From a virus (Duplodnaviria; Caudoviricetes), in IMG/VR virus record IMGVR_UViG_3300042890_004365, positions 10,510 through 74,509 of that record: 64,000 bases of DNA. One strand, written 5' to 3'. A model generated the notes under the pieces. The model searched no databases, was not told the origin of the DNA, and was given only the letters and a program-made list of their open reading frames with translations. A program made the position numbers and the translations under genes. Below are positions 14,256-54,183 of the stretch, piece after piece. How positions within the stretch are numbered: position 1 is the first letter of the stretch; each line of letters begins with the position of its first letter.

Positions 14256-14915
14256 TTATTTTCTTTTTAATATTATCTCATCGATAATTCCATACTTTTT
14301 TGCATCAGGTGCAGTCATCCAATAATCTCTATCACCATCTTTCGCAACTTTATCAAAAGCTTGTCCAGATTTATCAGAAATTATTTCATAAAGTTCTTTT
14401 TTCAAAGAGTTTACCTCTTTTACTTCAATCTCTAAATCTGATGCTTGTTGATATCCAGCATAGGATAATGGTTGGTGTATCATTGTTCTACTTCTTTTAA
14501 GAGCCATTCTCTTACCTTTTGTACCAGAACATAGAATTACTGCAGCCATTGATGCAGCAAGCCCCGTATTGATTGTAACAATGTCTGGTTTAACAAAGTC
14601 CATTACATCAAGTAAACCTAATCCGGTATAAACTGAACCACCTGGTGAATCAATATAAATTGATATGTCATCATCACTTTCGGATTCTAAATAAAGAAGT
14701 TGTGCTTTGATTATGTTTGTAACATACTCATCAACTTCAGTAGATAAAAAGATAATCCTATCATCTAATAACTTTGAGAAAACATCAACAGACATACCAT
14801 TATCCTCTAATAACATAGGAGTGCTGTTTTTTCTTTGTAAATGTTTAAAGTAATTGTCTTGAAAGGTACTTGAAATAGATTGACTTCGTAGAAATTTTTG
14901 TAAGTCGTTTTTCAT
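14256..14915 (-). CDS. clpP: ClpP protease proteolytic subunit
   Basis: DVFSKLLDDRIIFL, IDSPGGSV, GLAASMAA (Ser), MIHQP (His), DRDYWM (Asp). Confidence 0.95.
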   Translation of the reverse strand: MKNDLQKFLRSQSISSTFQDNYFKHLQRKNSTPMLLEDNGMSVDVFSKLLDDRIIFLSTEVDEYVTNIIKAQLLYLESESDDDISIYIDSPGGSVYTGLGLLDVMDFVKPDIVTINTGLAASMAAVILCSGTKGKRMALKRSRTMIHQPLSYAGYQQASDLEIEVKEVNSLKKELYEIISDKSGQAFDKVAKDGDRDYWMTAPDAKKYGIIDEIILKRK

Positions 14916-14960
14916 TTATGGGTATTATTTTTTGTTTTTATTATAAAATAAAGTAAAAGT

Positions 14961-14970
14961 TTAATATATA
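14961..14970 (+). promoter_or_regulatory. Putative late promoter box TTAATATATA (representative copy)
   Basis: Same box about 4-30 nt upstream of more than 20 starts, e.g. 15644, 16024, 18584, 24890, 27659, 31752, 32560, 63225 (+) and 1988, 19584, 30468, 31384, 43709, 47230, 57210, 62257, 63197 (-). Confidence 0.75.
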
Positions 14971-14975
14971 CTGAT

Positions 14976-15626
14976 ATGAAGTATTTAAAGATTTTTGAGA
15001 CATTTAAGAATAATGACACATTATATGTGTTCGATTTTGACGATACTCTTGTGAATACACCAGAGTTTGAAGAATTTGTTATTGAATACTTAACAGAAGA
15101 TGTTTCTATAAAAGAAATAGTAGATAAATCAACTGCAAGTATTGGAGTAAATAAGTCAGACTTAAAATGGCAAGATGGTAGAATTTATGTAGAAGATCCA
15201 AATGAGAACATTGAAGTAAAAGGAAACTGGGTTAGAAAAGGTAAAAGGATTTATCTTATGGCACCAGATATATTTGGTATGACTGATTTAAGTTTACCAA
15301 CTGAAGTATTAGAATTGGCAGAATTTTATAATTCAATTGAGAATAAATGTATAGTAACTGCTCGTTCAGAAAAGATTAGAGATAAAATTGAAAAAGTTAT
15401 GAAAGAGTTAGGATTAGAATATCCTAAATATGGACTTCATATGTATCCTTATGAAAATCACTATAATGCAGGTGGTTGGAAAGGTGAAAAGATTGTTGAA
15501 CTAGTTAAGCAAACTGGATTTGATAAGGTTATATTTTACGATGATAATATAAAGTATTTAAAAGGTGCTACTAAGGTAATTAAAGAGAAGTTACCTAACT
15601 TAGACTATAAGTATGTAAAAGTGTAA
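14976..15626 (+). CDS. HAD-superfamily phosphatase (RNA-repair HAD-like)
   Basis: DFDDTL motif I, VTAR motif II, K motif III, FYDD motif IV; N-terminal MKYLKIFETF tag. Confidence 0.75.
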   Translation: MKYLKIFETFKNNDTLYVFDFDDTLVNTPEFEEFVIEYLTEDVSIKEIVDKSTASIGVNKSDLKWQDGRIYVEDPNENIEVKGNWVRKGKRIYLMAPDIFGMTDLSLPTEVLELAEFYNSIENKCIVTARSEKIRDKIEKVMKELGLEYPKYGLHMYPYENHYNAGGWKGEKIVELVKQTGFDKVIFYDDNIKYLKGATKVIKEKLPNLDYKYVKV

Positions 15627-15674
15627 AAAAGACGTTTAATAATTTAATATATAATAAAAAAATAATAAACATAT

Positions 15675-15983
15675 ATGAAAACTAAAGTTGAAGTACTTGG
15701 ATATGAAATCGAAATTGAAGAAGTTGATGGTGTTGTAACTGTTAAAGCTGAATTAGATGGTGAAACAGTTGAAGAATTCACTCTTGAAGCACCTGAAGAA
15801 GGGCAAGGTCAAGATGAAGAATCAGATGACGACGTTAAAGGATTTAAAGATTTTGATGGTCAAGAAGAAGAAGATTTCGGAGACGAAGAATCAGAAGGTC
15901 AAGATGACGATGATGACGATGACGATGATGACGATGATGAAAAGGCACTAGAATCTTTTCAGTCTTTTTTCAATAAGAGATAA
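15675..15983 (+). CDS. Small highly acidic protein with poly-Asp tract
   Basis: (GAT/GAC)n run near 15903-15938; late box at 15644; C-terminal LESFQSFF. Confidence 0.75.
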   Translation: MKTKVEVLGYEIEIEEVDGVVTVKAELDGETVEEFTLEAPEEGQGQDEESDDDVKGFKDFDGQEEEDFGDEESEGQDDDDDDDDDDDDEKALESFQSFFNKR

Positions 15984-16053
15984 TAAGAAAGAGGATTTAG
16001 TCCTCTTTTTTTATAAATGAAATTTAATATATAATAAAAAATATTATAATACT

Positions 16054-17211
16054 ATGTTATTAAAATTTAATAATTTTATCAAAGAAAGTGTTGATGGTAA
16101 AGGAACTTTACTTTTTTATGCATTTGATTGGGATGACAATATACTAAACATGCCAACTGAAATTATGGTACAAACCGAAGATGGTGAAGAAGTTGGTATG
16201 AGTACAGCAGACTTTGCGGTTTATCGTTCTAAAATAGGAAAAGAAGAATTTGAATATGATGGAAAAACTATTGTTGGTTTAGATTATAATACTGCATTTA
16301 GAAATTTTAGAGATATAGAAGATCCAGAAATATTCAAAAAGGATGTTGCTAAGGCATTACAAATGGAAGCATTTGCACCTGCTTGGGAAGATTTTATTGA
16401 GTGTTTAACTAATGGTTCTTTATTTGCAATTATAACTGCACGTGGTCACGAATCAGAAGGAATGAGAAAAGGTGTTGAATATATTATCGACGGTTTAGAT
16501 CAACAAGATAAAGAGAAAATGCATGATAGTTTACTTATGTACCTTCAACTTTTTGGTAAATCAAGAAATGAAGAAAGTTATGAAAGTATTACAAATTTCT
16601 CTCAAAGTGAATTAGTTAAAAACTACTTAGATTTATGTCACTTTGTTGGTGTTTCTGCGCCTTCAAGAGGTGGTTCACCTGCTAATCCAGAAGCAGCAAA
16701 AGAAGATGCTTTAAGAGAATTTATTACTGATGTAAATGGATATGCAGAAAAAATTGGATTTGTTGCAAAAGTTGGTTTCTCTGATGATGACCCAGGAAAT
16801 GTTAAACATATGACACATGCACTTTCAAGTGAAGATTTAGATCACGAAGAATTGTGGCCTTTTATTAAAGAGTTCATCATTAAAGATACTAATAAACCAG
16901 AAAACGTAGTTAGAACTAATATACCTACAAGAAGAGTTAAAACATTTAGTGATTTTAATGAGAGCCAAACTCAAATTCCCGGACTACAAAGTTCAACTAT
17001 TTCTATGCAACCAGAAACTAATCTTATGATTATGGCAGATAAAACTAATGACTTTAGTGCAAATGGTGATGAAACTCGTCAAGATCCTTATGGTAATAGA
17101 TTAAAAGCTCAAGCTAGAAGATTAGGAAGTCAAGAATATTGTGCTTGTTGTGATAATACAAAATCAGAATGTGATTGTGATGACGGTTGTGAATGTAAAT
17201 GTAAAGAATAA
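16054..17211 (+). CDS. HAD-like protein with Cys-rich C-terminal tail
   Basis: FDWDDNIL, ITARGH, FSDDD motifs; tail CACCDNTKSECDCDDGCECKC; N-terminal MLLKFNNFIKES. Confidence 0.7.
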   Translation: MLLKFNNFIKESVDGKGTLLFYAFDWDDNILNMPTEIMVQTEDGEEVGMSTADFAVYRSKIGKEEFEYDGKTIVGLDYNTAFRNFRDIEDPEIFKKDVAKALQMEAFAPAWEDFIECLTNGSLFAIITARGHESEGMRKGVEYIIDGLDQQDKEKMHDSLLMYLQLFGKSRNEESYESITNFSQSELVKNYLDLCHFVGVSAPSRGGSPANPEAAKEDALREFITDVNGYAEKIGFVAKVGFSDDDPGNVKHMTHALSSEDLDHEELWPFIKEFIIKDTNKPENVVRTNIPTRRVKTFSDFNESQTQIPGLQSSTISMQPETNLMIMADKTNDFSANGDETRQDPYGNRLKAQARRLGSQEYCACCDNTKSECDCDDGCECKCKE

Positions 17212-17244
17212 ATTAAATCCTCTTTTTTAAGAGGATTTTTTATT

Positions 17245-17273: not shown

Positions 17274-17277
17274 CTGT

Positions 17278-21415: not shown

Positions 21416-22828
21416 TTAGAAGCCACCGAAGATGTCCATCACGACCGACAACCTTTTAGTTATTTCAGGTAAACCTAATGGTTCAATAATCGAATTAATT
21501 GGAGAAAGTATAGCTTTCGCGAACTGTTCGTCATAATCTATCTGCGGAGCGAACTCATGAGGAAAAGAGCCTCTCATATAAGCAAATTGATCATTTACAG
21601 TTTTATCCTTACAAACATAATACTTAATCTTTGTACCCGATTTAATAAACTCATACTTCTGTTGTGCTGCTCTATCTAAATTTAATAGGTAATTGTGATA
21701 AGCTGCGGCCTTGACTGCAAAGTGAGCACCATTTACATATCGTAAAGGTAAAATCTTATCATCAATAATTTTAGCATCATAGTTAGAACAAGAAGACTGC
21801 ATCGCTATATCATCAATATCCGCCAACTCAAACTCTTTTCTAAGATTTTTAACTAACTTCAATAATTCTTTAATGTTGAATGTATCTGGATTAGAAAATA
21901 AGTATCTTACAATATCTACAATCTTATCTCTTGCAAATAAAGGTGTAGATGATCTTACAAGTTCAACTCCTTTAGGGAATATATAACTCATCGGATCAAA
22001 GTTGATACCATCTTCGTGTACAATATGTTGAATGTATTTCTTTTTAGCAATGTTTATAATTGATTCAGAAATCTTTTCTAACTCAAAATCTTCTTTATTC
22101 TCTACTCCAAATGAAGCAGCATAATTCTCTAAACATTGTTTGAAATATCCACCATATCTGAAATGGTCTAAACCTTGAATTAAGTCTAATTCACTAGTCC
22201 AATTCCATTTTATTTCCGATGTAAATACACCATCATTTATCATAGTATTAAGATTTCTATCTTTAATGAAATGACCATCAAATACTAATAGGTCATACGC
22301 ATTACAAATTGTATCTTTTAGTTCACTAACTGAATGAACTACGGCAACACAATTTGGATTATTATGTCTTACTTTTTCTTTTGAAAGAACAATAAACTTT
22401 TTATCAATCTTATCAACTTCACTTAAAACTAAATTCTCCCAATCACAATGATCAATTGCAGGTTTAAATGATACAAATAATGAGTCAGTATCAGCATAAA
22501 TACTAACATGTTCATTTTTATCAATTTGAGTAACATTTTTTATTCCTACTTTATCATGTACTTCAAAATCAAGATGCCATTGGTTATACCAATAATCTTC
22601 ATTTACTCTATCCATTGTTTTTGTAAGGTCACGACCTTGTGCCGTTATTGTACCTGCTACGTGATTATTATATAATATGAAGTAAGCCGTTGCAAAAGCT
22701 CCGTAAGATCCATTTAATACTAATTTTAATGCGGTTTGCATTGCATTATAGTACTCAACATCTTTTTTAAGTTGAACTGCTTGTATTTTAAGTTGTTCTA
22801 TTTTTATTTTTTTCTCTTCTTTTGTCAT
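21416..22828 (-). CDS. Family B DNA polymerase, C-terminal subunit (split gp43)
   Basis: Motif B ALKLVLNGSYG, ITAQGR, motif C YADTDS, KKKY, KGVELVRSSTP; no exonuclease or motif A. Start ATG 22828 preferred because the promoter box lies at 22833-22859. Confidence 0.9.
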   Translation of the reverse strand: MTKEEKKIKIEQLKIQAVQLKKDVEYYNAMQTALKLVLNGSYGAFATAYFILYNNHVAGTITAQGRDLTKTMDRVNEDYWYNQWHLDFEVHDKVGIKNVTQIDKNEHVSIYADTDSLFVSFKPAIDHCDWENLVLSEVDKIDKKFIVLSKEKVRHNNPNCVAVVHSVSELKDTICNAYDLLVFDGHFIKDRNLNTMINDGVFTSEIKWNWTSELDLIQGLDHFRYGGYFKQCLENYAASFGVENKEDFELEKISESIINIAKKKYIQHIVHEDGINFDPMSYIFPKGVELVRSSTPLFARDKIVDIVRYLFSNPDTFNIKELLKLVKNLRKEFELADIDDIAMQSSCSNYDAKIIDDKILPLRYVNGAHFAVKAAAYHNYLLNLDRAAQQKYEFIKSGTKIKYYVCKDKTVNDQFAYMRGSFPHEFAPQIDYDEQFAKAILSPINSIIEPLGLPEITKRLSVVMDIFGGF

Positions 22829-22879
22829 AGAAATTATATCATTCATAATAGAAAAGTTTTTAAATAAAAAAGAAGAACA

Positions 22880-23413
22880 TTAGTTCTTCTTTTTTGGTTT
22901 TAATATCATAAGCCATTTACTAGATTCCAATTTAGGAACGTTTTCTGCAGATCCAAACTCTTCAAGTAAGGTAGCAAATTTTAACATTACTAATTGTCCT
23001 CTATCTGGATTACCTTTTTGTCTTCCTTTTAATTGAATAACACATTTTACCTTGTCATTATCTAATAAGAACTCTTTACCTTTTTTAGCTTTAATCTCTA
23101 AATCGTGATCTGAAATCTCACAAGAAAGTTTTATTTCTTTTAATTCTGATTTTATGGCATTTTTCTTTTGTTCTTTTAACATTTTCTCAATGTTATAAAG
23201 GAACTTACCATAGTCTTCAATTTTGGCAATAGGTGGATCTTGGTTCTCATTGATTAAAATAAGATCTTTACCTTCTTCATCAGCAAGACGAAGTGCTTCT
23301 TTAGTTCTCATTACTTCCGGTGCTGCACCGGTAACGATTAGTCTAACCTCAAATGACTTAATTTCGTCATTTATTTTGTGTTTTCTTTTGTTGTTTGGTT
23401 GTTTTCTATTCAA
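22880..23413 (-). CDS. infC: Translation initiation factor IF-3, non-AUG start
   Basis: INDEI..EVRLI, EALRLA, DPPIAKIEDYGKFLY, KEIKL..I.DHDLEIK, DKVK..KGRQ; TTG start with in-frame ATT codons at 23422 and 23425. Confidence 0.92.
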   Translation of the reverse strand: MNRKQPNNKRKHKINDEIKSFEVRLIVTGAAPEVMRTKEALRLADEEGKDLILINENQDPPIAKIEDYGKFLYNIEKMLKEQKKNAIKSELKEIKLSCEISDHDLEIKAKKGKEFLLDNDKVKCVIQLKGRQKGNPDRGQLVMLKFATLLEEFGSAENVPKLESSKWLMILKPKKKN

Positions 23414-26468: not shown

Positions 26469-26550
26469 AATGATTATATCAAAGTTGATAACTTTGTTTA
26501 AACTAATTTACATTTTCATGTATAACATAAGAACATTAAAAATATCTAAA

Positions 26551-27621
26551 ATGAAATTAAACAAAAAGTTTTTAAAAGAGTACTTGAATAGTACTTCTCC
26601 AACAGGGTTTGAGTATGAATTAGGTGGACAAAAAGTTTGGATGGACAATATTGAAAAGTATGTCGATTCGGTAGAACTTGATAATTATGGTACTGCTTAT
26701 GGTGTTACCGGTAATTTAGAGTCTGACTTTAAAGTTGTTATCGAAGCACACTCTGATGAAATCAGTTGGTTTGTAAACTACATTGACTCAAAAGGATATA
26801 TTAGAGTTATTAGAAATGGTGGCTCTGACGTACAAATTGCTCCTTCTATGAGAGTAAATCTATGGGGTGAAAAGGGTGCCGTTACAGGTGTCTTTGGACA
26901 TCCAGCGATACATATCTCTGATAGAAAGAAAGAGGTTGATTTAAACTCAATTTTTATCGATATTGGTGCTTCTTCAAAAGAAGATGTTGCTAAAATGGGT
27001 ATTAAAGTTGGTACAGTAGTTACTTTTAAAGATGAGTTGATGAAACTTGGTAACGATTACTACTCTGGTAGAGCTCTTGACAACAGAATTGGTGGTTTTA
27101 TGATTGCCGAGGTTGCAAGAAAATTGAAAGAGAAAGGTAAAAAACTACCATTTAAACTTTACATTGTTAATTCTGTTCAAGAAGAAATTGGATTACGTGG
27201 TGCTGAAATGATTGCACACACAATTAAACCAAATGTTGCTATTGTAACTGATGTTTGTCATGAAACATCATCACCTTGTTATACCGCAAGTAAACAAGGA
27301 GATCACATTGCTGGTGATGGAGGTGTTATTACAAGAGGTCCTGCAGTTCATAATAAATTGAGAAAATTGATTTTGGATACCGCAACGGCTAAAAAAATCC
27401 CTCACCAGTTAGCAGCATCTTCAAGATCAACTGGAACAGATACTGATGCGTTTGCTTATGCAAATGGTGGTACTCCTTCGGCACTTATTTCACTGCCATT
27501 GAAATATATGCACACAACGACTGAGACTGTTCATAAGAATGATATTAAAAATGTTATAGAGTTGATTTATGAGACTCTTCTAAATATTGAAGAGAATCAT
27601 AATTTTAAATACAACTCTTAA
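26551..27621 (+). CDS. M42 family metallo-aminopeptidase
   Basis: SPTGFE, EAHSDEI, RALDNRIG, VQEEIGLRGA, DVCH, GTDTD, LKYMHT; start revised to ATG 26551. Confidence 0.9.
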   Translation: MKLNKKFLKEYLNSTSPTGFEYELGGQKVWMDNIEKYVDSVELDNYGTAYGVTGNLESDFKVVIEAHSDEISWFVNYIDSKGYIRVIRNGGSDVQIAPSMRVNLWGEKGAVTGVFGHPAIHISDRKKEVDLNSIFIDIGASSKEDVAKMGIKVGTVVTFKDELMKLGNDYYSGRALDNRIGGFMIAEVARKLKEKGKKLPFKLYIVNSVQEEIGLRGAEMIAHTIKPNVAIVTDVCHETSSPCYTASKQGDHIAGDGGVITRGPAVHNKLRKLILDTATAKKIPHQLAASSRSTGTDTDAFAYANGGTPSALISLPLKYMHTTTETVHKNDIKNVIELIYETLLNIEENHNFKYNS

Positions 27622-40928: not shown

Positions 40929-42071
40929 ATGCTTATATATAAAGGTATTCAATACAAACCGGGTAGTAGAGTAATTGCAAATATAGATGGTATGCAAATT
41001 GAAGGTAAAATTCAACATGAGGACCCATACTACTATATTTGTCATAATGAACCTGAAAAATCAGGAAATCAAGCTACCAATAGACTTGGTTATAAATTTT
41101 CTTGGGCATTTAAACAAGATTATAATGGAACACTTACTGATGGTGTTGTTATATTAGGTTTAAATGGTGTTGAAAACTTAAAAGATACATTTGAAATATC
41201 CGAAAAATTAATTACTTTTTTTCAAAGTAAGTCTATTGATATTCTTTCAATAGAAGATAAAAGAATGTTCCCAGACTATAATAAATTTGATATATCTGAG
41301 ACAAAAGGAATGATTACATTAGTAGATTCTACAAAAAATAGAAGTACTGATTTAAAATTTGGAAGATTTTTAAATTCATTCTCTAAACAATATAAAGATA
41401 CATTTAAAATGGATTCTTTATTTGATAATAAAAAAATAGAGAAAACTCATAATGATTATGTATCATATCAAACTGGTGATCACATTAAAGTTGAGTATTT
41501 AACCGGCAAAGAAATCTTAGAAGGATATAAAAGAGATAATTATCAATCATCTAAATCATCATTAGGTGGTTCTTGTATGACAGATAAACTAAGTTATCTA
41601 GATCTTTATACAAAAAATACTGATAAAGTCAGTATGGTTGCAATTAAAGTTTTTGATAAATTTGTTGGTAGATGTTTAGTATGGACAACTAATTGTGGAC
41701 AAAAGATAATGGATAAACCTTACATTTGTGATGAATGGGTTTTATCTAAATTTGATGAGATTAGAGAAAAAGAAGGATATCTATCATTTAATGATGTTAT
41801 CACAAACTCATCAATGAAACTATTTATTGATTTGGATACTACTGATATTGATGAGTGGCCTTATTTAGATACATTTATGTATTTAACTTTTCATCAAAAG
41901 AAAGTTATTGTTGAACAACCAGTAGGTGTTCTTCAATTAAATATATTTAATCGTAAAACAGAAGTGTTACAAGATGATTATTCTAAAGGTATATTACAAT
42001 CTTATCCACCTAGAGGTTACTCTATGAGACTTAGAACAACCAATGGTAGATATGAAGATAATAGAAATTAA
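40929..42071 (+). CDS. Conserved phage protein, paralogue of 27674..28738
   Basis: DLKFGRFL, LGGSCM, GRCLVW, IMDKPY, WPYLDTF. Confidence 0.75.
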   Translation: MLIYKGIQYKPGSRVIANIDGMQIEGKIQHEDPYYYICHNEPEKSGNQATNRLGYKFSWAFKQDYNGTLTDGVVILGLNGVENLKDTFEISEKLITFFQSKSIDILSIEDKRMFPDYNKFDISETKGMITLVDSTKNRSTDLKFGRFLNSFSKQYKDTFKMDSLFDNKKIEKTHNDYVSYQTGDHIKVEYLTGKEILEGYKRDNYQSSKSSLGGSCMTDKLSYLDLYTKNTDKVSMVAIKVFDKFVGRCLVWTTNCGQKIMDKPYICDEWVLSKFDEIREKEGYLSFNDVITNSSMKLFIDLDTTDIDEWPYLDTFMYLTFHQKKVIVEQPVGVLQLNIFNRKTEVLQDDYSKGILQSYPPRGYSMRLRTTNGRYEDNRN

Positions 42072-42088
42072 AAAAAGCTTAGAGAAAT

Positions 42089-42598
42089 CTAAGCTTTTTT
42101 GTCTTTAAATAAAACATCAAAAAGATTTGGTTTTTTAGTACCATTTAATTCACTTCTTATATCCATTAGGAGTTTACCTAATTTATTTTTACCTTTACCC
42201 GCACATTTTTCACAAGTACATTGACCATAGAAATTATCGTGCCAATAATTCCCTTCAATAATCTCTTTATTTTCAGTCATTAGTAACATTTCTTTTAATG
42301 TTTCATCTTTGAACTTTTCTTTAACTGCCCATTCCATAAATCCAAATTTCTTTGAATCCCACTCAGATCTTACTTTTATAACTTTTCCTAGTTGTTTTGC
42401 TTTACCAGGTGCCATATTAGAAACTAGTTCTCTAAAATCAGCAGCAGTATAGTATTTACCATCAATCATTTGATCATTATTACACTTCATTGCAACATAG
42501 TATGTTTCAACACTATTGTAAGTAATACCTTGGTATTCTATTTTACATGGATAGAAGTTCGATAAAAAACCATACCTACCATCAAATTTTGTTATCAT
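42089..42598 (-). CDS. NADAR family protein (YbiA / T4 gp30.3-like)
   Basis: FLSNFYPC, SVETYYVAMK, AKQLG, KF..L...L.T, IIEGNYWHDNFYG, GKNKLGKLLMDIR. Confidence 0.88.
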   Translation of the reverse strand: MITKFDGRYGFLSNFYPCKIEYQGITYNSVETYYVAMKCNNDQMIDGKYYTAADFRELVSNMAPGKAKQLGKVIKVRSEWDSKKFGFMEWAVKEKFKDETLKEMLLMTENKEIIEGNYWHDNFYGQCTCEKCAGKGKNKLGKLLMDIRSELNGTKKPNLFDVLFKDKKA

Positions 42599-42648
42599 AA
42601 TTTTATATATTTATAAAAAAACCCACTCAATGAGTGGGAATTTTGTTG

Positions 42649-43026
42649 TGGAGATGACGTTGTACTGCCCAACGTGTCTTTCTCAGTTAAAAATAACTAT
42701 TCGTTTACAAGTTTAGTAAGTTTTTCTAAGTCTTACAAAATAATTAGTTTTTGAATCTCAAACTACTAATAAAAAGGTTTCACTTTTAAACTGGTGAACA
42801 CAGCTGTAGAATTTTTGGTGTATTAGTCTTATTTGATTAAGCTACTACTAAATCTCTGTTAGAGATCAAATTGTTTTGTAAGCAAGCTACTAAATCTTCA
42901 CTTGTTCCTACTTGATTAACGTTGCCGTTTAAAAATGTACCATCTAATTTATTAATCGGTCATTGTAGGCCACCCGATACTTGCATAATCATCCTTAGTC
43001 CGCAAATCAATTCTAAAAACACCCCC
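42649..43026 (-). ncRNA. ssrA: tmRNA (378 nt)
   Basis: 5' GGGGGTG pairs with 3' CATCTCC-A including the G3:U wobble; T-arm ACGTTG-GGCAGTA-CAACGT; tag ORF 42926-42837 GNVNQVGTSEDLVACLQNNLISNRDLVVA*. Confidence 0.88.
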
Positions 43027-43067
43027 AGGATTAAATATATATATTATATATTAAAAGTGTAAAAGGT

Positions 43068-43682
43068 TTAATTTCTATTTCTTTTTATATCTCTATTTAT
43101 TTTACTACATAATGGTTGTAGATTACTATAATGATTAAGTTTAAATATTTCCTGTTCATTAACGGCATTTGATATTGGTATAATATGATCTATATCCCAA
43201 CCATAGTTTAATTCTCCATTATATAGACCATAGTTTTCCCAATTCATCCAATTCTCAAATTTATCTTCTAAATGTTTTTTAAAATCATTAAAATTACATC
43301 CTATTATATTTAATAATTCAATTGTCGTAGAAGTTACAAACTTACCTCTACTTAAAGATTTATTTAATCTTCTTTGAAACCCATGTTTTAATCTGTATAA
43401 AATATCTGTTCTCATTTTCATTTTATGATATTCTCTACGTCTTATCCTGTTTTTCTCTCTACGTTCATCACTAATTATATAACTATCATTAAGTTTTTTC
43501 TTTATTATTTTTCTTCTATTCTTCTCATCATCACTTAATAGGTTTAATTTTTCTTTAATAAACTCTTTGTTTTTTAAGAAGTATAATCTTTTATATTCTT
43601 TTATACAATTTTTACATTGATTAGTACCTTTATTATATTCCTCTATAACTTTTAATTCTTCACACTTTATACATTTTTTCAT
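43068..43682 (-). CDS. Free-standing HNH (homing-type) endonuclease
   Basis: N-terminal CxxC..CxxC; WDIDHIIP..NHYSNLQPLCSKIN; paralogue of 56392..57069. Confidence 0.82.
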   Translation of the reverse strand: MKKCIKCEELKVIEEYNKGTNQCKNCIKEYKRLYFLKNKEFIKEKLNLLSDDEKNRRKIIKKKLNDSYIISDERREKNRIRRREYHKMKMRTDILYRLKHGFQRRLNKSLSRGKFVTSTTIELLNIIGCNFNDFKKHLEDKFENWMNWENYGLYNGELNYGWDIDHIIPISNAVNEQEIFKLNHYSNLQPLCSKINRDIKRNRN

Positions 43683-43735
43683 ATAAACATTTTATATTTT
43701 TGTTACTATATATATTAAAATAATAGTTTCTCCTT

Positions 43736-43921: not shown

Positions 43922-45199
43922 TTAGTCAAGAACATTATCAGTAAACCACTTAATAACTAACTCTTTTGGTATCACATCACCATAATACTCTGTATATTGT
44001 TCACCACCTTTTTTAATGACGTATGACGTATCATCTGTGTTGATACTATCAAAGTATTTAACATACTCTTCAAAGCTCTTAAAACGCATCCCTAATACAC
44101 TCACAGAGTCGTCATTAAATATCATCATCTTATAATCATCTGGACTAATATCAATACCAAATAGATTTCCTAAATATGTATTTAATTTTTTAACATCTTT
44201 GAAATCAAATTTAACATCTTTTTGACCTTCGATTTGAACTAAAATATCATCTAAAATGGTTACTTTAATATCAACATCTTCAAACCAAGTATTAAATACA
44301 AGAGTATCAGTGTTATATGTATCATACTCTAATGTATTTGTATGTAGTAAGTCATATTTATTTAAAATACTTTTAACTTCTTTTACAACACTCTTATTAG
44401 AGAAACGATGTCTTGGTGCAATTTTATATTTTGGCTCAAAATAAGTTACTTTTCTTTCAGTTGGTAAGTTCTCCCAATCAATTTTACACGCGGCTTCTGC
44501 AACTTTTTTAGTGTAAGATAAATCTACATACTCTGTTTTATAGTGTTCATTCCATCCACCAGCACTAATGTTGGTACATTCTGGAATAATGTCTAAGAAA
44601 GTCGCAGTATCTGTATAATAAGCATTTGGATCTGGTTTAGATTCAACACCTAAGTTAGTTAGTTCATCTGATAAAGCATCTGCAAAATCAATAGAACAAC
44701 AAAATCTACCTTTCTGTCTTAGTACAACAGAACCTGTTTGTTTTCTATCAAATGCAACTGCTCTTTTAAATTTTTTGAAGAATTCTGGGTTTGCTTTTAA
44801 AGCATTTTGTGAACCCCATAAACCACCACTTAAAATTGGTTCTTCTCCTAAGAAGAAGTAGTAAGTTCCAGGTATTCCTTTAGAAATCATGTATAATAAA
44901 ATAGACATTCCTAATTTATTATCACCACCTAATATGGTTTTTTCATCAGTTTTGATAATATCACCTTCAATAACATGATTTACTTTTTCATATTCGGTAC
45001 AATAAGTATCTAAGTGAGTTGTGAATAATGTTTCTGAATTACCTACTTGAATATAATAGTTACCAATAGAATCTTTTTTATATCCTGTGGGTAGATATTT
45101 TTCCAATTTAGTCTCATCACCATAAGGAATTGTATATTCAGTTAGTTTCAAAAAAGTATCCTTTATATCTAAAGGATTTATACTTTCATTTTTTGCCAT
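43922..45199 (-). CDS. M28/M20-type zinc peptidase
   Basis: THLDT, LGGDNKLG, GEE, AFDRK, YTDTA, ECTNIS.G..NEH. Confidence 0.8.
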   Translation of the reverse strand: MAKNESINPLDIKDTFLKLTEYTIPYGDETKLEKYLPTGYKKDSIGNYYIQVGNSETLFTTHLDTYCTEYEKVNHVIEGDIIKTDEKTILGGDNKLGMSILLYMISKGIPGTYYFFLGEEPILSGGLWGSQNALKANPEFFKKFKRAVAFDRKQTGSVVLRQKGRFCCSIDFADALSDELTNLGVESKPDPNAYYTDTATFLDIIPECTNISAGGWNEHYKTEYVDLSYTKKVAEAACKIDWENLPTERKVTYFEPKYKIAPRHRFSNKSVVKEVKSILNKYDLLHTNTLEYDTYNTDTLVFNTWFEDVDIKVTILDDILVQIEGQKDVKFDFKDVKKLNTYLGNLFGIDISPDDYKMMIFNDDSVSVLGMRFKSFEEYVKYFDSINTDDTSYVIKKGGEQYTEYYGDVIPKELVIKWFTDNVLD

Positions 45200-45831: not shown

Positions 45832-47208
45832 TTATTTTAATTCTATTTTGATGGTTGTTTCGTCAAAAACAACGTAAGGGTCTGCGGTTCTGTGTTTATA
45901 TAATAAACCTTGTACTTGTGATAATGTATCAAAGATAGTTTTAACATCTGCAAGATCTAAATCTATTTTAATGAATATTTTATCTTGAACACCAACTACT
46001 TTAACATCTAAACCAAATATAGATTTTTTAACAGTATCAATTAAAGTTTTATGTTTTCTTAATAATTCTTCATTTATACCTACCTTTCTTACAGCGGGCA
46101 ATTGTGACCAATTTACTTTTAAAGAAGCTTTTGCTAATTTCTCTAAATAAGTCATATTTTGTATCTCTCTAAATGTATGTTCGTTATTATATCCAACCGA
46201 TACGTTAGTACATTCTGATATATCATCGATAAATGATGCAGAATCAGTAAATACTCCTGTTGGATCAGTAGATAAATTTAATCCACTTTTGTTATATTCT
46301 TTACAAAGTGCTGTAGCAAACTCATTTGAACAACAAACTCTACCATATTGAGAAGTAATAACCGAACCAGTTTTTCTTCTATCAAAAGAAACACATTTTT
46401 TAACATTTTTTAAAAATTCAAATGAACTATATTCACTCGCCAAATCTCTTGAACCAATACCACCTCTTTCTTCTCCAATAAAGAAGTAATAAATACCTGG
46501 TATTTTATTTTCCATCATATATAACATTACTGCTACTCCTGCTTTATCATCTGCTCCTAATATAGATGTACCATCAGTATAAATATACTCATCACCATCT
46601 TCTATTTTTGATAATAGTTTAGTAGGTAGTTGAGTTCTATCCGCAGTATCTAAGTGAGATGTAAACATTGTAGTATCATCTCCTGCAATTACTTTATAAT
46701 AATTTCCAAATTTATCTAATTCTAAGTCTGGTAAAAACTCTAAAACTTCAGTTTCGTGACCCATTGGGTAAGTTTTTGTTACCAATGATAAGAATGTTGA
46801 ACGAACATCTTTTGGATTATAAACAAATGGTTTATGTTCAATTGGTGTACCAACTGGTTGTACTGTAACTTTTACTCCTTTTTTAAGATTTACAATAGTA
46901 GTAGAGAATTTTCTAATACTTTCTTCATCATAAACACCAGGAAAATAGCTTCTCAAAAATGTTCCTATTTTGATATATTGTCTTCTTCCACCTATTATAG
47001 CATCAAAGAAATAATCTGAATCAGAGATATCCAATCTTGATATATTCATATCATTGGCATATTTAGACCTAGGATCTGCCATCCAGTTAAGTTCATATGC
47101 AATATAATCATCATGATCATCTTCCATTGTAGTTAGAAGTTTTACTAACCTAGCAGAAAATGCAATCTTTATCTCATCTTCATATTTCATTTTATAATCA
47201 TTTGCCAT
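45832..47208 (-). CDS. M28/M20-type zinc peptidase with extra N-terminal domain
   Basis: SHLDT, LGADDKAG, GEERGGIGS, SFDRR, FTDSA, ECTNVSVGYNNEH; late box at 47230. Confidence 0.82.
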   Translation of the reverse strand: MANDYKMKYEDEIKIAFSARLVKLLTTMEDDHDDYIAYELNWMADPRSKYANDMNISRLDISDSDYFFDAIIGGRRQYIKIGTFLRSYFPGVYDEESIRKFSTTIVNLKKGVKVTVQPVGTPIEHKPFVYNPKDVRSTFLSLVTKTYPMGHETEVLEFLPDLELDKFGNYYKVIAGDDTTMFTSHLDTADRTQLPTKLLSKIEDGDEYIYTDGTSILGADDKAGVAVMLYMMENKIPGIYYFFIGEERGGIGSRDLASEYSSFEFLKNVKKCVSFDRRKTGSVITSQYGRVCCSNEFATALCKEYNKSGLNLSTDPTGVFTDSASFIDDISECTNVSVGYNNEHTFREIQNMTYLEKLAKASLKVNWSQLPAVRKVGINEELLRKHKTLIDTVKKSIFGLDVKVVGVQDKIFIKIDLDLADVKTIFDTLSQVQGLLYKHRTADPYVVFDETTIKIELK

Positions 47209-47241: not shown

Positions 47242-47634
47242 TTATATAGTGACTTCATGTGCGTTTTTATAATCAACCATAACTTGACCATCATTCATAC
47301 CTGGTTTTTTACTAACAAATCTACGTTTACAGTAAACTACAACAGATTTATCAACACCTTTTGCCTTACTATTATCCTTTGCAATCTCTGCAACTTTCTT
47401 AATAACTTCAGGAGTTGGTATATTATCTTTAACAACAATAACTACATGACTTCCTGGAACACCTTTTACGTGCATCCATAAATCGTCATTATCTGCAATA
47501 TTAAATGTTAAGTGGTCGTTAGACCTAGCATCTTTACCTAAATGAATAATAAATCCATCAACTTCCATTTTTTTAATATTAGGAAATTTATCTTTTTTGG
47601 ATTCATTAAATTGTTTATATTTCTTTAATCTCAT
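47242..47634 (-). CDS. Stand-alone NFACT-R (DUF814) RNA-binding domain protein
   Basis: GKDARSNDHLT, DLWMHVKGVPGSHVVI, A..SKA, V.K..G...GQV; start revised to ATG 47634 after TAATATATA 47639. Confidence 0.85.
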   Translation of the reverse strand: MRLKKYKQFNESKKDKFPNIKKMEVDGFIIHLGKDARSNDHLTFNIADNDDLWMHVKGVPGSHVVIVVKDNIPTPEVIKKVAEIAKDNSKAKGVDKSVVVYCKRRFVSKKPGMNDGQVMVDYKNAHEVTI

Positions 47635-47705
47635 AATGTATATATTATTTATATAAAACAAAAAAAGACCCAATTGGGTCTTTTTTTTAATATAATAACT
47701 AATAA

Positions 47706-49448
47706 TTAGTTAAGTAATCCTTGAGCATCAGAAACTTTGATAGTCATGAACTGTTTTTGTGGGTACCAACCAACTTCAGTTACAGCATATCTAGATCTAA
47801 GTAACATTCTTGGTGCGAATGTAGCCTCAGAGATGATGCTAATTGACTGAGCCATTAAGTAAGGTACGAAAATAATACCTGGTTGATCAGGGTTATTTTT
47901 TCTTCCTAAAACGATTCTGTTATCGTTATATCTCATGTATGGATCAACATAGATAGAGATGTCTCCGATTGAACCTACTGGGTACAATTGACCTTGAGAG
48001 TTCATTTTAGATTTCAATGGGTTGATAGTGTATCCTGCAATATCTTGTAATGCTGCAGCTAAACCTCCATTTGTGATTAAGTATTGAGCTGGCCCAACAC
48101 GTCCTTCTGTTGCAATGTAGTTAGAAGCATGAGCAATTTTCGTGATCAATTTTCTTTGTACAGCGTGAGTAGTTTCACCACCAATAGCACTAGTTCCAGT
48201 AGCATAAGTAGTATCTAAGTCAAACAAAGTTTGATTAGTGATAGCACCAGAGAAAGTACTTCCCGATAAAGGAGCATTTACTCTGTTTAAATCTCCCATT
48301 TCGAAGATTTTATTAACAATTTGTTTAGAGATTGTTTGAGACAATTCATTAACAAGGATTGATTCCATTTTTTGAACGATATCCATACCTGTGTTAGCTT
48401 TGATGTCTTCAATCTCAGTTCTTCTAAGTGCAGAAGATACTTCAATAGTACCAACAGCAACTGTTTTAGAAGAGATTTTTGGTCCGATAACTCCTGCGTA
48501 AGAATCATCATCTGTTTGTCTGTCCATTGGTGAAGATCCTGAAGATCTATCATTAGTTGTACTACCGTACCAGTTTGCAGAGAAACCAGGAATGTGATCT
48601 TCTAAAGCAGATACTAATGAAACAGCAACATTTGTTAAACTAGATCCAGTTGCTGCAATTTTAGTAATTGCCGCAGTCATTGCTTGAGTTGGACCAAATG
48701 TATTTCTTGTAGCATCATAAGCCCAAGTTGCAGCAACAGAACCACCAGCAGCATAACCATTAGCAGTATTAGCTTGTCTATAAGCTCTAAATATTGGAAA
48801 ACCATCGATACGAGAGAATCCTAAGAATTCAACCTGATTAAGTTTTGAACCATTTTCTACAGTAGCGATATTTTTAGTAGTTGTACCAGTAGAAATGTCA
48901 GCAAACAATCTACCACCTGATAAACCACCTTGTGTTTCAGTAATTACTGGAGTACCTGTAGCTAAAGCAGTTCTTAAATTTGCTTGTACAGTAGTTAATT
49001 CAGTAGCAGTAACTTTAAAAACTTGTGGTTTTTCGTCTGCAGCACCTGTACGAGTATCATCATATTGAAAGTCAATATAAAGTAAATCGATTTTCGGACC
49101 TGGAGTTGGTTTAACAGCAACTAAGTCAAGACCAATTGTTTGAGCAGCAATTTTCATTGCAACTGGTAACAAGTTTTGACCAACATCACCTGAACCAATT
49201 GTTCCTACTGTTGTTGTTGTAGCTGGACTACCACCTACTGTTTGACCTGCATAAAAAGCTGGTTGAGCAGCTAAAACTGAACCCATACCTGCTACGTTTG
49301 AAGCGTTTACATACGCATTCTCGTTGATTGAGTGAAATTCAGCATATTCTGACATCCATTCTACTCTATCACCTGTAACTCCCATGTTTTCCAACACTGG
49401 AGACCATTTTTTCATGGCTTTTTGATTATCTATTCTAATGTGTGACAT
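47706..49448 (-). CDS. Major capsid protein (gp23-like)
   Basis: KKWSPVLE, DLVAVKP, MESILVNELSQTI.KQI, IYVDPY, FVPY, TFAPRMLLRSRYA; start revised to ATG 49448; terminator at 47659-47688. Confidence 0.92.
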   Translation of the reverse strand: MSHIRIDNQKAMKKWSPVLENMGVTGDRVEWMSEYAEFHSINENAYVNASNVAGMGSVLAAQPAFYAGQTVGGSPATTTTVGTIGSGDVGQNLLPVAMKIAAQTIGLDLVAVKPTPGPKIDLLYIDFQYDDTRTGAADEKPQVFKVTATELTTVQANLRTALATGTPVITETQGGLSGGRLFADISTGTTTKNIATVENGSKLNQVEFLGFSRIDGFPIFRAYRQANTANGYAAGGSVAATWAYDATRNTFGPTQAMTAAITKIAATGSSLTNVAVSLVSALEDHIPGFSANWYGSTTNDRSSGSSPMDRQTDDDSYAGVIGPKISSKTVAVGTIEVSSALRRTEIEDIKANTGMDIVQKMESILVNELSQTISKQIVNKIFEMGDLNRVNAPLSGSTFSGAITNQTLFDLDTTYATGTSAIGGETTHAVQRKLITKIAHASNYIATEGRVGPAQYLITNGGLAAALQDIAGYTINPLKSKMNSQGQLYPVGSIGDISIYVDPYMRYNDNRIVLGRKNNPDQPGIIFVPYLMAQSISIISEATFAPRMLLRSRYAVTEVGWYPQKQFMTIKVSDAQGLLN

Positions 49449-49535
49449 AAAATTTTTATTTTTTTTTAGTTTTTTTATAATACTATATATATCCTTGTTT
49501 TTACTCGTTTTTGACAAGTATGGATTTTTTATAGA

Positions 49536-51713: not shown

Positions 51714-51911
51714 TTAAAATAATTATTTTTTGTAGTTATTACGATGGTATATATTTAACCTGTAAAACAATAAAATTTTAAAGGTGGATTCTTTATGGTA
51801 AAAATCTTTTTTTAATTTTTATTAGGTATATCTACTGGATTTTTTATCTTTGTAAAAGTTTTGGAGGAGAAATGCTAATTTTAATAAATACTTAAAAAAA
51901 TGCGGTTTTTT

Positions 51912-52307
51912 ATGATCCTATCAAGAGAGATAAATGTAAAAATCACTGAGTCAAATTACAACTATTATGATGATTTAGGATATGATGTATATATAAGTGA
52001 AGAAATTGTAATTCCAGTTGAATTACTACCAAAAGGATCACATTACAAAATCAAGTGTAAATGTGACACTTGTGGAATTGAAAAAGAAGTAATCTATAAG
52101 AACTACTTAAAATATGATAATGATTGGGGAGATTATTATTGTAGAAAGTGTTCTGAAGTTAAAAGAAAAGAAACATTAAGAAAAAATTTCGGAGTTGATT
52201 ATCCGATACAGAATAAAAAAGTTTTAGAAAAGATGAAGAAAACATTAGTACAGAAGTATGGAGTAGATAACATTTCTAAAAACAAAAAAAAATTAAATAA
52301 TGAATAA
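51912..52307 (+). CDS. Zinc-finger protein resembling the DNA-binding part of phage homing endonucleases
   Basis: CKCDTCG, YYCRKC, KNFGVDYP / KYGVDN repeats; no nuclease motif; start 51900 or 51912. Confidence 0.55.
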   Translation: MILSREINVKITESNYNYYDDLGYDVYISEEIVIPVELLPKGSHYKIKCKCDTCGIEKEVIYKNYLKYDNDWGDYYCRKCSEVKRKETLRKNFGVDYPIQNKKVLEKMKKTLVQKYGVDNISKNKKKLNNE

Positions 52308-54183
52308 AATTAAAGAAGATAGTGTTTTTGAGGGCACTATCGATTTCGCAAACAGCGGAAATGCCTCAATAAATATAGGAGATAAAAATCTCTTCATATT
52401 TAAGAAAAATACACTTAACTCACTTAATGGTGATAAAGTTAAAGTTAAAGTAATAACTAAGAACAATAAAATTGAAGCTGAAGTTATTGAAGTTCTCGAA
52501 AGATTCAGAACACAATTTGTTGGTAAAGTACAAATAAACAAAGAAAATAAAAGACTTATCTTTGTAGTACCTGACAGTCAGAAAATAGGTGTCGACTTTT
52601 ATATAAAAGGGGAAAACGATGCAGTACATGATCAAAAAGTTCTTGTCGAACTAATCGACTGGGAACCAGGAACAAAATCACCAAAAGCAAAAATAGTAGA
52701 GATACTTGGTAGTTCAGGTGATAATAATACAGAAATGAACTCAATTATGTATGAGTACGGTTTACCTAACAACTTTCCTTTAATGGTAGAAGCCGAAGCG
52801 GAATTGATAGACTTCACAATTCCAGAATCAGAAATCAGTAACAGACGAGATTTAAGAAATATCACAACATTTACAATTGATCCAGTCGACGCCAAAGATT
52901 TTGACGACGCACTTTCGGTTAATATACTCGATGATAATACAGTAGAAGTAGGTATACATATTGCAGATGTTTCACATTATATTAAAGAAGGTGGAATAAT
53001 TGATGAAGAAGCTATTAAAAGAGCAACATCAGTTTACTTAGTTGATAGATGTGTACCAATGCTACCAGAAAGATTAAGTAATGGAGTGTGCTCATTAAGA
53101 CCTAATGAAGATAAACTTTGTTTCTCTGTTATTGTTAAACTAAATAATGACGGACAAATACTTGATAAATGGTTTGGAAAAACTATTATACATTCAGATA
53201 GAAGATACTCTTATGAAGAAGCTCAAGAAATAATTGAAGGTAAAGACGGTGATTTTAAAACTGAAATACTTTTATTAGATTCGATTGCTAAGAAAATGAG
53301 AAAACAAAGAATAAATGACGGTTCTATCGAAATGGGTGGAATTGAAGTAAGATTTCAATTAGATCCAACTACTAAGAAACCAACAGGTGTTTATTTTAAA
53401 ACTCAAAAAGATGCAAATAAACTGATTGAGGAATATATGTTACTTGCAAATAAATTAGTTGCGAAACTTCTTTATGATGCTAAGTATCACAATGTTTATA
53501 GAGTACACAATAGTCCTAACCTTGAAAAGTTAGAAGCACTTTCTCTAATATGTAAAAACTTTGGTTATAGTTTAGACTTAACATCAGATACTACTAATTT
53601 GAAAAAATCTATAAATCAATTAGTTGCTGATATAAAAGATCAACCAGAAGAAAATATGATTGAAACTTTAATCACAAGATGTATGTCTAAGGCTACCTAT
53701 ACAATAGTAAATGCGGGACACTATGGATTAGGGTTTACTCACTATTCTCACTTTACTTCACCAATTAGAAGATATCCGGATTTAATAACTCATAGAGTTT
53801 TAATGGATTTCTTAAATAAGAAATCAAATGGAAGTCCTCAAAAAATTGAAGGTATGGCAAAATGGTGTTCTGAAAGAGAAATCTTAGCAGCAAAAGCACA
53901 AAGAGATTCTATTAAATATAAACAGATTGAATTCTTAGAAGATAAAATCGGACAAGTATTTGATGGAATCATATCAGGAGTAACTGATTGGGGAATGTAT
54001 GTTGAACTTATCGAAAGTAAATGTGAAGGTATGGTTAGATATAATGGTAATCATAAAGTAGATGCAGAAAACTATACAGTGAATTTAAAATCAGGTGGAT
54101 CAGTAAGATTAGGCGACGAAGTAAAAGTAATTGTAAAGGCGGTTGACTTAGACAGAAAACAAATCGATTTTGAATTGTTCTAA
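52300..54183 (+). CDS. rnr: Ribonuclease R
   Basis: Cold-shock-like N-terminus, RNB TIDPVDAKDFDDALS, HFTSPIRRYPD, C-terminal S1 domain. Confidence 0.93.
   Translation: MNKIKEDSVFEGTIDFANSGNASINIGDKNLFIFKKNTLNSLNGDKVKVKVITKNNKIEAEVIEVLERFRTQFVGKVQINKENKRLIFVVPDSQKIGVDFYIKGENDAVHDQKVLVELIDWEPGTKSPKAKIVEILGSSGDNNTEMNSIMYEYGLPNNFPLMVEAEAELIDFTIPESEISNRRDLRNITTFTIDPVDAKDFDDALSVNILDDNTVEVGIHIADVSHYIKEGGIIDEEAIKRATSVYLVDRCVPMLPERLSNGVCSLRPNEDKLCFSVIVKLNNDGQILDKWFGKTIIHSDRRYSYEEAQEIIEGKDGDFKTEILLLDSIAKKMRKQRINDGSIEMGGIEVRFQLDPTTKKPTGVYFKTQKDANKLIEEYMLLANKLVAKLLYDAKYHNVYRVHNSPNLEKLEALSLICKNFGYSLDLTSDTTNLKKSINQLVADIKDQPEENMIETLITRCMSKATYTIVNAGHYGLGFTHYSHFTSPIRRYPDLITHRVLMDFLNKKSNGSPQKIEGMAKWCSEREILAAKAQRDSIKYKQIEFLEDKIGQVFDGIISGVTDWGMYVELIESKCEGMVRYNGNHKVDAENYTVNLKSGGSVRLGDEVKVIVKAVDLDRKQIDFELF

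Follow-up and report, generated by a model that had tools for sequence, protein, structure and literature searches.

The question raised by the stretch of freshwater phage DNA analysed here is whether a transfer-messenger RNA (tmRNA) gene and a set of genes for translation and protein turnover that lie around it form a single ribosome-rescue system. The stretch (64,000 nt, called the window in what follows) corresponds to bases 10510–74509 of a 74.5-kb viral record, IMGVR_UViG_3300042890_004365, for which CheckV gives a completeness of 14%. A preliminary description of this DNA had proposed that the tmRNA, RNase R (rnr), ClpP, a stand-alone NFACT-R protein and IF3 (infC), found together with one M42 and two M28 peptidases, make up a toolkit that could clear stalled ribosomes. 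Our answer, which we hold to be probable from the comparisons set out below, is that the window encodes a functional, divergent tmRNA of the one-piece type and that the other genes are not parts of one co-inherited kit. Huge phages have already been described as carrying tmRNAs, SmpB, IF1/IF3, release factors and CCA-adding enzymes, and the text of that study proposes rescue of stalled ribosomes (PMC7162821).

Judged by its capsid protein, the source of the window is a huge phage of the Mahaphage clade with LR745206 and LR756502 as its nearest relatives. The protein is 70–72% identical to those of LR745206 (635 kb) and LR756502 (642 kb), both uncultured phages, 52% identical to those of LR756501/LR756503 (735 kb) and LR756504, 36% identical to that of LR756500 and about 29% identical to those of Lak phages; these relatives appear in the text of the huge-phage study as 'Mahaphage' genomes, a clade that includes genomes of more than 634 kb (PMC7162821). 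The comparison set used below consisted of six complete GenBank relatives and three large IMG/VR contigs (G001–G003), of which G001 is 483 kb long and 98% complete; another contig that carries the RNA, G006, is 476 kb long and 97% complete.

The tmRNA gene lies at 42646..43026 on the minus strand and specifies an RNA of 381 nt, in which RNA nucleotide n falls at window position 43027−n. It had been placed at 42649–43026 in the preliminary description, in exact agreement with our structure model, where G1 is position 43026 and the discriminator A position 42649, with CAA running on to 42646. Its identity rests on comparative evidence because the tmRNA detectors and the fold of the single sequence give no support (see below). 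The 470-bp 'intergenic' stretch at this locus is 73% identical to LR756502 and LR745206, and in the three-way alignment an acceptor-like stem and a T-stem both show compensatory changes. Viral and metagenome collections were scanned with motifs and then with an nhmmer profile, which together gave 140 hits, 119 of full length, with 91 distinct sequences of 362–386 nt. One of the motifs, CCGATTAATAAATTA, matched at least 118 loci and was too AT-rich to be used alone; some of its matches later turned out to be true members. Among cellular genomes (185,579 species) the T-arm pattern was present at 24 loci, of which one was a true member, and on these searches the family appears to be essentially confined to phage and metagenome contigs. 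The single cellular-genome member (L388) is on a 3.6-kb contig in a metagenome-assembled genome labelled Candidatus Peribacteria, and this is probably a phage contig that was binned there. DNA sequencing runs that contained at least half of the words sampled from the tmRNA stretch came from lake, estuary and runoff metagenomes.

The main evidence comes from a hand-built model of tmRNA type with 88 pairs, comprising the acceptor stem, P2a–c, four pseudoknots (PK1–PK4), one in-frame hairpin, P5 and the T-arm. It was tested on 89 of the 91 distinct sequences (L213, which extends beyond its contig, and L114, which has a 5′ offset, were left out), and the controls were models in which the pairing partners were slid by 1–3 columns, and 500 shuffles. 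With the model as built 92.2% of cells were paired, compared with 36–46% for the slid versions; 56 pairs were changed on both sides (25–32 when slid) and 609 cells were compensated (72–223 when slid). None of the 500 shuffles equalled the observed value for paired cells, double changes or compensation, although it should be noted that the member sequences are related, so that the shuffles overstate significance and the slid controls are the fairer test. RNAalifold, given 13 sequences, recovered on its own the acceptor stem, P2, the first stem of PK1 and the T-arm. A loose helix finder had also been tried, and as it returned hundreds of chance helices in this AT-rich RNA it was replaced by the hand-built model.

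The tRNA-like part of the RNA is the best defined. The 5′ strand of the 7-bp acceptor stem (43020..43026, minus strand; nt 1–7, GGGGGUG) pairs with 42650–42656, and the 3′ strand together with the discriminator occupies 42649..42656 (minus strand; nt 371–377, CAUCUCC, then A378 at 42649 and CAA at 42648–42646). Across the members this helix is 97.8% paired and covaries at pair 5:68 (A:U 64, G:C 12, G:U 9, C:G 2) and pair 6:67 (U:A 84, A:U 3). The G3:U70 pair is present in 86 of the 89 members (alignment errors at the 5′ end affect the remaining three rows), and the discriminator is always A; G3:U70 and A73 in the tRNA-like domain point to alanine identity. The T-arm (42657..42675, minus strand) adjoins the acceptor stem and has a 6-bp stem (nt 352–357/365–370) and a non-canonical 7-nt loop, GGCAGUA. 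Five of the six pairs of its stem show double compensatory changes, 99.6% of cells are paired and there are 18 stem combinations. The loop has the consensus GGCRGUN (GGCAGTA 51, GGCAGTG 11, GGCAGTT 9 and GGCGGTA 8 of the 91 sequences), with GGCAGTA or a close variant in 85/91. The long P2 helix (42680..43006, minus strand; nt 21–48 with nt 315–347) encloses the mRNA-like domain; it has 25 pairs (helices 2–4), 14 of them changed on both sides and 90–100% of cells paired, and an anticodon arm is absent. PK1 (42939..42978, minus strand) lies just upstream of the resume codon. Its first stem (nt 49–53/68–72) is 100% paired with two pairs double-changed, and its second (nt 57–60/85–88) is 92% paired with all four pairs double-changed. 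In the PK2–PK4 region (42713..42804, minus strand; nt 223–314) covariation is seen in both stems of PK2 (helices 10 and 11) and in the first stems of PK3 and PK4 (helices 12 and 14).

The tag reading frame occupies 42837..42926 on the minus strand, from the resume codon GGC (42926–42924) through 29 codons to the stop codon TAA (42839–42837), and encodes GNVNQVGTSEDLVACLQNNLISNRDLVVA. It is start-less, with zero in-frame start codons between the upstream stop and the resume codon. In all 89 members this frame is open for 27–29 codons, compared with medians of five and three codons for the other two frames; the resume codon is GGC in 67, GGA in 20 and GAC in two, and the stop codon is TAA in 83 and TAG in six. 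Insertions and deletions in the frame are multiples of three, and variability is greatest at the third codon position. The 53 distinct tags are strongly conserved over their first 19 residues and end in V (54 members) or A (35), never in another residue.

Signals around the gene and RNA-library contigs were also considered. A promoter-like site (TTTACA-18 nt-TATATT; 43034..43063, minus strand), found by consensus scan only, ends 7 nt before G1; as the region contains three such sites where 5.1 are expected, the count is not significant and it is the position alone that fits. An intrinsic-terminator-like hairpin of 7 bp (five G-C) with a U-tract (42615..42638, minus strand) starts 8 nt past the 3′ end of the RNA, and here three sites in the region compare with 0.2 expected. 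Six metatranscriptome runs from six studies contained 42–48% of the sampled tmRNA words. In the four runs that were examined contigs of 338–377 nt lie at 42649–43015 with 1–3 differences each; in one (X17) the adapter abuts 42649, the discriminator, where the last base of the adapter may coincide with it, and in another (X20) one contig ends at 42651. The flanking genes within 42000–43700 are covered by none of the RNA-library contigs, a lack of coverage that carries no meaning. These are assembled contigs, which do not prove transcription, ends or strand, and we read them as a slight indication that there is a discrete RNA with a trimmed tRNA-like 3′ end.

Several results weigh against the reading as a functional tmRNA, in addition to the relatedness of the members and the nature of the RNA contigs just mentioned. 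ARAGORN called no gene in the window and none among the 91 distinct members (0/91), and it is likely that it misses them because the T-loop is non-canonical, a canonical T-Psi-C loop being present in 0/91 members. A relaxed ARAGORN run on 42500–43200 gave nothing down to -ps70, and its call at -ps60 was rejected as spurious, being permuted with a nonsense tag. Rfam found no tmRNA in the window at the gathering threshold and nothing relevant at E≤10 over 42300–43400, RF00023 had no match in the whole record from which the window comes, and 0/16 family members were detected (13 diverse loci at the gathering threshold and two relatives at E≤1). The minimum free energy (MFE) fold of the single sequence closes the ends, yet it is no more stable than those of shuffled sequences (z = 0.01). 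The second stems of PK3 and PK4 (helices 13 and 15) are invariant or weak and give no covariation signal, which leaves both knots unproven. The discriminator is followed by CAA in 66 of the 91 distinct members (the window's among them), by CTA in 18 and by CCA in only six, one being truncated; no added non-templated CCA was seen at the ends of the RNA-library contigs, which cannot settle the point. The tags end in TV, LV or VA and not in the classic Ala-Ala, so that a role as a degron would have to be inferred. Finally, SmpB cannot be shown for the window's own phage, the record being about 14% of a genome; the preliminary description had noted no SmpB in the window, and there is indeed none in the 74.5-kb record.

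Comparison with accepted tmRNAs sets these points in context. Like the SsrA RNA of the RF00023 family that acts with SmpB, the phage RNA has a 7-bp acceptor stem with G3:U70, a discriminator A, a T-arm stacked on the acceptor stem and no anticodon arm, followed by a long P2, PK1 before the resume codon, a start-less frame with a hydrophobic end and later pseudoknots in about 380 nt. It differs from SsrA in its GGCRGUN T-loop in place of the canonical T-Psi-C loop and its 6-bp T-stem, in encoding CCA in 6/91 members only, in its tag of 27–29 codons ending in V or A where that of SsrA is short and ends in Ala-Ala, and in scoring below every detector threshold applied. As the text of the 2025 tmRNA database paper states, CCA is not always encoded by tmRNA genes (PMC11915505).

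The sister phages provide a bridge between the two. RF00023 scores are 95.5 bits for LR756500, 65.2 for LR756504 and 49.4 for Lak-C1, all passing the cutoff, and 21.1 for LR756501, which is below it; the first three are thus Mahaphage tmRNAs that still pass Rfam, whereas the window family scores nothing. ARAGORN found only that of LR756500 among these four loci (1/4). The family nhmmer profile reached the tmRNA of LR756501 with an E-value of 9.8e-9. With LR756504 it was not significant (E 0.28), and here the link rests on features read by eye, namely the same acceptor arms, a similar resume-codon context, a similarly odd T-loop and a tag that starts DNVN. Long tags were also read by eye in LR756504 (24 codons) and LR756501 (33 codons). 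The tmRNA of LR756501.1 (L155, minus strand, about 1860–1240 of the locus) has a group I intron (RF00028, 96 bits) that interrupts a T-loop which is otherwise canonical, unlike that of the window family; its acceptor arms pair with G3:U70, and its 3′ end, past the 33-codon tag, is without CCA. Intron-split tmRNA genes are a known bacterial form, and the text of the database paper reports none for phage (PMC11915505).

SmpB, which is missing from the window's record, is present in all four complete or near-complete genomes that carry this type of RNA (LR756502, LR745206, G001 and G006), at E ~1e-50 in LR756502 and LR745206, and the phage SmpB matches the Pfam model at full coverage. None was found in seven fragmentary records with this RNA (0/7), which is uninformative because they are fragmentary. 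The best RF00023 hits in LR756502 and LR745206 are tRNA-sized and fall short of the cutoff, so that the SmpB genes of these two phages look like orphans because this tmRNA family escapes Rfam and ARAGORN. A CCA-adding-enzyme-family gene was found in 6/9 related records and alanyl-tRNA synthetase (AlaRS) in 1/9, as a partial match only, which fits charging by the host AlaRS and addition of CCA after transcription.

From these observations the following pathway is the most likely one for the window's tmRNA. The transcript would be trimmed at the discriminator and given its CCA end by a CCA-adding enzyme of the phage or the host, after which the host AlaRS would charge it with alanine and the phage's own SmpB, predicted to be encoded elsewhere in the genome, would bind it. 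During infection the complex would then enter ribosomes that have come to a halt on mRNAs that are broken or lack a stop codon, freeing these ribosomes and adding a phage-specific tail of about 30 residues that ends in V or A. This tail probably marks the product for Clp-type proteolysis, either by phage ClpP with a ClpA/C-like ATPase or by the protease of the host. In keeping with the preliminary description, no Clp ATPase domain was found in the window among the 48 open reading frames (ORFs) of at least 100 aa, out of 63 listed, that were scanned with Pfam, and ClpS was not found in the window's own record. An AAA_2 (ClpA/ClpC-type) ATPase of about 710 aa is present in LR756502, LR745206, G001, LR756501 and LR756504. 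In four huge-phage genomes there are also ArfB-sized open frames (174–180 aa) that encode an RF-1 (GGQ) domain (LR756502.1 107309-107629, LR745206.1 48139-48459, LR756501.1 358528-358854 and LR756504.1 568928-569242).

We now turn to the proteins of the proposed toolkit. ClpP, IF3, the M42 peptidase, NFACT-R and RNase R are all at or near the positions first given for them and each is supported by profile searches. ClpP (14256..14915, minus strand; Pfam 1.1e-65) is of the cellular type, scoring 262.6 bits on the NCBIfam ClpP model against 75.5 on the model for phage head-maturation ClpP-related proteins; it is below the NCBIfam equivalog cutoffs (262.6 versus 361), and when aligned to PDB 6mx2 it retains the motif positions for Ser, His and Asp. 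IF3 (22880..23413, minus strand) matches IF3_N (7.7e-20) and IF3_C (1.5e-23) and scores 145.5 on TIGR00168, where the cutoff is 60. The M42 (TET-type) aminopeptidase (26470..27621, plus strand) matches the whole Pfam profile (7.3e-75). The two peptidases first assigned to M28 are below the Pfam M28 cutoff (45832–47208: 20.5 versus 21.3, 4.4e-4; 43922–45199: no hit), and their nearest solved relatives are M20 PepT tripeptidases. They are better regarded as PepT-like (M20, clan MH) paralogues, with 43% identity to each other (E 2e-62). Paralogue B (45832..47208, minus strand) matches the PDB tripeptidase 3rza at 1.1e-10 with its H-x-D, GADDK and GEE stretches aligned, while paralogue A (43922..45199, minus strand) has weak NCBIfam PepT hits only, no PDB sequence match and no Pfam hit.

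The remaining two proteins resemble parts of known rescue systems and differ from them in ways that matter for the toolkit proposal. The stand-alone NFACT-R (47242..47673, minus strand; PF05670 1.7e-13, 51.5 bits, cutoff 29.8) is likely to start at an internal ATG, giving 130 aa (47242–47634), as its 583 relatives are mostly of 129–130 aa. It aligns to the C-terminal part of RqcH/FbpA-type models and in this is like RqcH of the RqcH–RqcP system and NEMF; it differs from RqcH/NEMF in being without NFACT-N, the helix-hairpin-helix and the coiled-coil, and for this reason would itself be unable to recruit Ala-tRNA or to build Ala tails. NFACT-N (PF05833) was found neither in the window's record nor in nine related records (0/9), so that the statement in the preliminary description that NFACT domains define RqcH does not apply to a protein of only 130–143 aa in a set with NFACT-N in 0/10 records. 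NFACT-R is treated in the text of an earlier survey as a domain with a general, predicted RNA/tRNA-binding function that is not confined to ribosome quality control and is found solo in eukaryotes (CCDC25/Jlp2) and fused to ThiI in bacteria (PMC4075521). RNase R (52300..54183, plus strand) has the CSD2-RNB-S1 architecture of a 3′–5′ exoribonuclease (RNB 1.8e-107) and scores above the RNase R equivalog cutoff (TIGR02063, 634.3 versus 597.85), as the E. coli enzyme that works with tmRNA–SmpB would. It covers positions 64–709 of 711 in TIGR02063, the S1 domain forming residues 548–625 of 627, and only 107–724 of 813 in the E. coli-type model PRK11642, which indicates that unlike the E. coli type it is without the N-terminal region and the C-terminal extension (basic tail) beyond S1. 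That extension is required for the activity of RNase R that is linked to trans-translation. ClpP, RNase R, IF3, M42, both PepT-like peptidases and the solo NFACT-R look intact and are probably active.

The first alternative, which appears unlikely, unites the tmRNA with SmpB, RNase R, ClpP and a Clp ATPase, NFACT-R, IF3 and the peptidases in a single coordinated system of the phage: ribosomes stalled through anti-phage RNases of the host or through mRNA decay would be cleared, both the broken mRNA and the tagged protein would be degraded, and the ribosomal subunits would be recycled. Every part is intact, and LR756502, LR745206 and G001 all carry the tmRNA, SmpB, ClpP, the AAA_2 ATPase, RNase R and NFACT-R, with the ArfB-sized RF-1-domain frame (about 175 aa) in LR756502 and LR745206 as well. 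Co-occurrence within one subclade is, however, expected by shared ancestry alone, and the distribution over the six complete GenBank relatives is uneven: a tmRNA-like RNA is present in 6/6 (that of LR756501 below the Rfam cutoff), SmpB in 5/6, ClpP in 5/6, RNB in 3/6, IF3 in 3/6 and NFACT-R in 2/6. In the larger set NFACT-R is restricted to the subclade of the window (LR756502, LR745206 and G001–G003), RNB in these five and in LR756504, and ClpP in all but LR756501, with a weak match in LR756500. IF3 is present in G003, LR756501, LR756504 and LR756500 and was not found in LR756502, LR745206, G001 or Lak-C1; it is therefore absent from the three closest complete relatives. LR756500 has a tmRNA without SmpB, and LR756501 has both of these and is without ClpP, RNB and NFACT-R.

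The arrangement of the genes bears on the same alternative. In the window a block of 11.5 kb around the gene for the T4-type major capsid protein (47706..49517, minus strand; Pfam Gp23 3.4e-29), which anchors it, holds RNase R, NFACT-R, both PepT-like genes and the tmRNA, and this block is conserved; in Bacilli rnr, smpB and ssrA are likewise kept adjacent. The genes had been called dispersed rather than operonic, which is correct for the set as a whole (they are spread over hundreds of kb in LR756502). In the window's subclade the order of the late-gene block is fixed as capsid, NFACT-R, PepT-like, unknown ORF, PepT-like, tmRNA and NADAR, with RNase R about 8 kb away. Over 133 tmRNA-bearing loci, counting in each case those with enough flanking sequence, NFACT-R is upstream of the tmRNA in 37/37 loci with at least 6 kb of flank (among the 66 loci with a detected copy the median distance is 2.2 kb and 63 have it on the same strand), the capsid gene is present in 25/25, RNase R is near the tmRNA on the opposite strand in 5/5, and NADAR is downstream on the same strand in 82/83. 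A homologue of PepT-like paralogue A is present at 92/133 loci. As all these phages are related, linkage alone does not show a shared function.

Taken together, patchy distribution, which the preliminary description had itself named as the outcome that would speak against a toolkit, is largely what was seen across the six complete GenBank relatives. What stands of the proposal is a real tmRNA, with SmpB in 4/4 complete or near-complete genomes that carry it; the idea of one co-inherited kit is not supported, given the scatter of the other genes, an RNase R that lacks the part of the E. coli-type model past 724 of 813 and the absence of NFACT-N from all ten records. The widely conserved pair is the tmRNA and SmpB only, and the other genes come and go independently across the clade. 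These are best read as the variable load of translation and proteostasis genes typical of huge phages and not as one toolkit.

Two further alternatives accept the tmRNA and differ in what it does. It is distinctly improbable, though consistent with some of the observations, that the phage runs a private form of trans-translation insulated from that of the host, in which a tmRNA with a remodelled elbow would work with phage SmpB, the solo NFACT-R would bind the tRNA-like domain and the long tag would be read by a Clp ATPase or adaptor of the phage and not of the host. The case for NFACT-R as an extra factor in such a pathway is that it is a predicted tRNA-binding domain, is always about 2 kb upstream of the tmRNA and occurs only in genomes with this type of RNA. 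It also strikes us as very improbable that the RNA is a tmRNA by descent with no ordinary part in rescue and degradation, either blocking or competing with host tmRNA–SmpB or adding a tag that stabilizes, localizes or neutralizes truncated proteins. The altered T-loop (elbow) of all members would suit this, as would a tag of 27–29 codons with its first 19 residues conserved and a V/A end, which is more conservation than a simple C-terminal degron needs. On the other side, hydrophobic V/A ends resemble weaker variants of known Clp degrons. There is a precedent in mycobacteriophage DS6A, whose tmRNA is without a coding sequence and inhibits the host tmRNA, according to the database paper, which surveys bacterial genomes and in its text mentions phage only for DS6A (PMC11915505). 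The DS6A RNA is likewise a phage-encoded member of the tmRNA family and differs in having no tag frame, whereas the frame is kept in 89/89 members here; this conserved frame and an SmpB of the phage's own at full Pfam coverage (E ~1e-50) point instead to productive trans-translation. That the RNA is not a tmRNA at all, being either a different structured non-coding RNA or a small-ORF leader whose likeness to a tRNA end is fortuitous, would agree with the silence of ARAGORN and Rfam, the non-canonical T-loop, the unencoded CCA and the MFE z-score of about 0, but it is barely credible and already close to refuted in view of covariation over the full tmRNA layout, the conserved G3:U70 and A73, a start-less frame conserved at the expected place past PK1, the profile link to an intron-form tmRNA, the features in common with an Rfam-validated sister tmRNA and the SmpB of LR756502 and LR745206, which would otherwise be without an RNA partner above the Rfam cutoff.

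Some other features of the window may be recorded here. The NADAR-domain protein (42089..42598, minus strand; Pfam 8.5e-24) is encoded directly downstream of the tmRNA, and the terminator-like hairpin lies between the two. On the other side, between the PepT-like gene and the tmRNA promoter, is an HNH-like ORF (43068–43682, minus strand) with weak Pfam hits only, which looks like a mobile insertion because a homologue is present at only 16/80 eligible loci. The RNase R gene (52300–54183, plus strand) is inside a head-morphogenesis module, between the portal (54639–56405, minus strand) and capsid genes, and this position recurs in 5/5 loci of sufficient length. Also among the head genes is a protein with a TnsA-like endonuclease N-terminal domain (57998–58525, plus strand; 9.7e-13), which may belong to a homing or mobile element. 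An ORF of 476 aa at 21416–22846 (minus strand) matches the family B DNA polymerase model only over 140–237 of 453 and may be a split or fragmented polymerase gene. The window further contains baseplate and lysozyme proteins, the portal of T4 type, a DEAD-box helicase and a Dam methylase, along with numerous ORFs of unknown function.

What is new in these results is a tmRNA variant that the detectors miss, tmRNAs and SmpB of huge phages as such being already known from the text of the huge-phage study, in which the tmRNAs were assigned by ARAGORN (PMC7162821). A full-text search of the literature on phage tmRNAs, supplementary tables excepted, gave no description of this family. Annotation of tmRNAs in phages and metagenomes relies on ARAGORN and Rfam, and both miss this family, with its 91 or more distinct sequences spread over well above 100 contigs, which implies that phage-encoded ribosome rescue has been under-counted. 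For the toolkit idea the result is sobering, unit-like behaviour being seen in the tmRNA and SmpB only. The conserved tail, some 30 residues long with Val or Ala at its end, poses a testable question, namely which protease or adaptor, of the phage or of the host, reads it. The family is also a natural experiment in which the tRNA-like elbow and the tag drift while G3:U70, P2, PK1 and the reading frame stay fixed.

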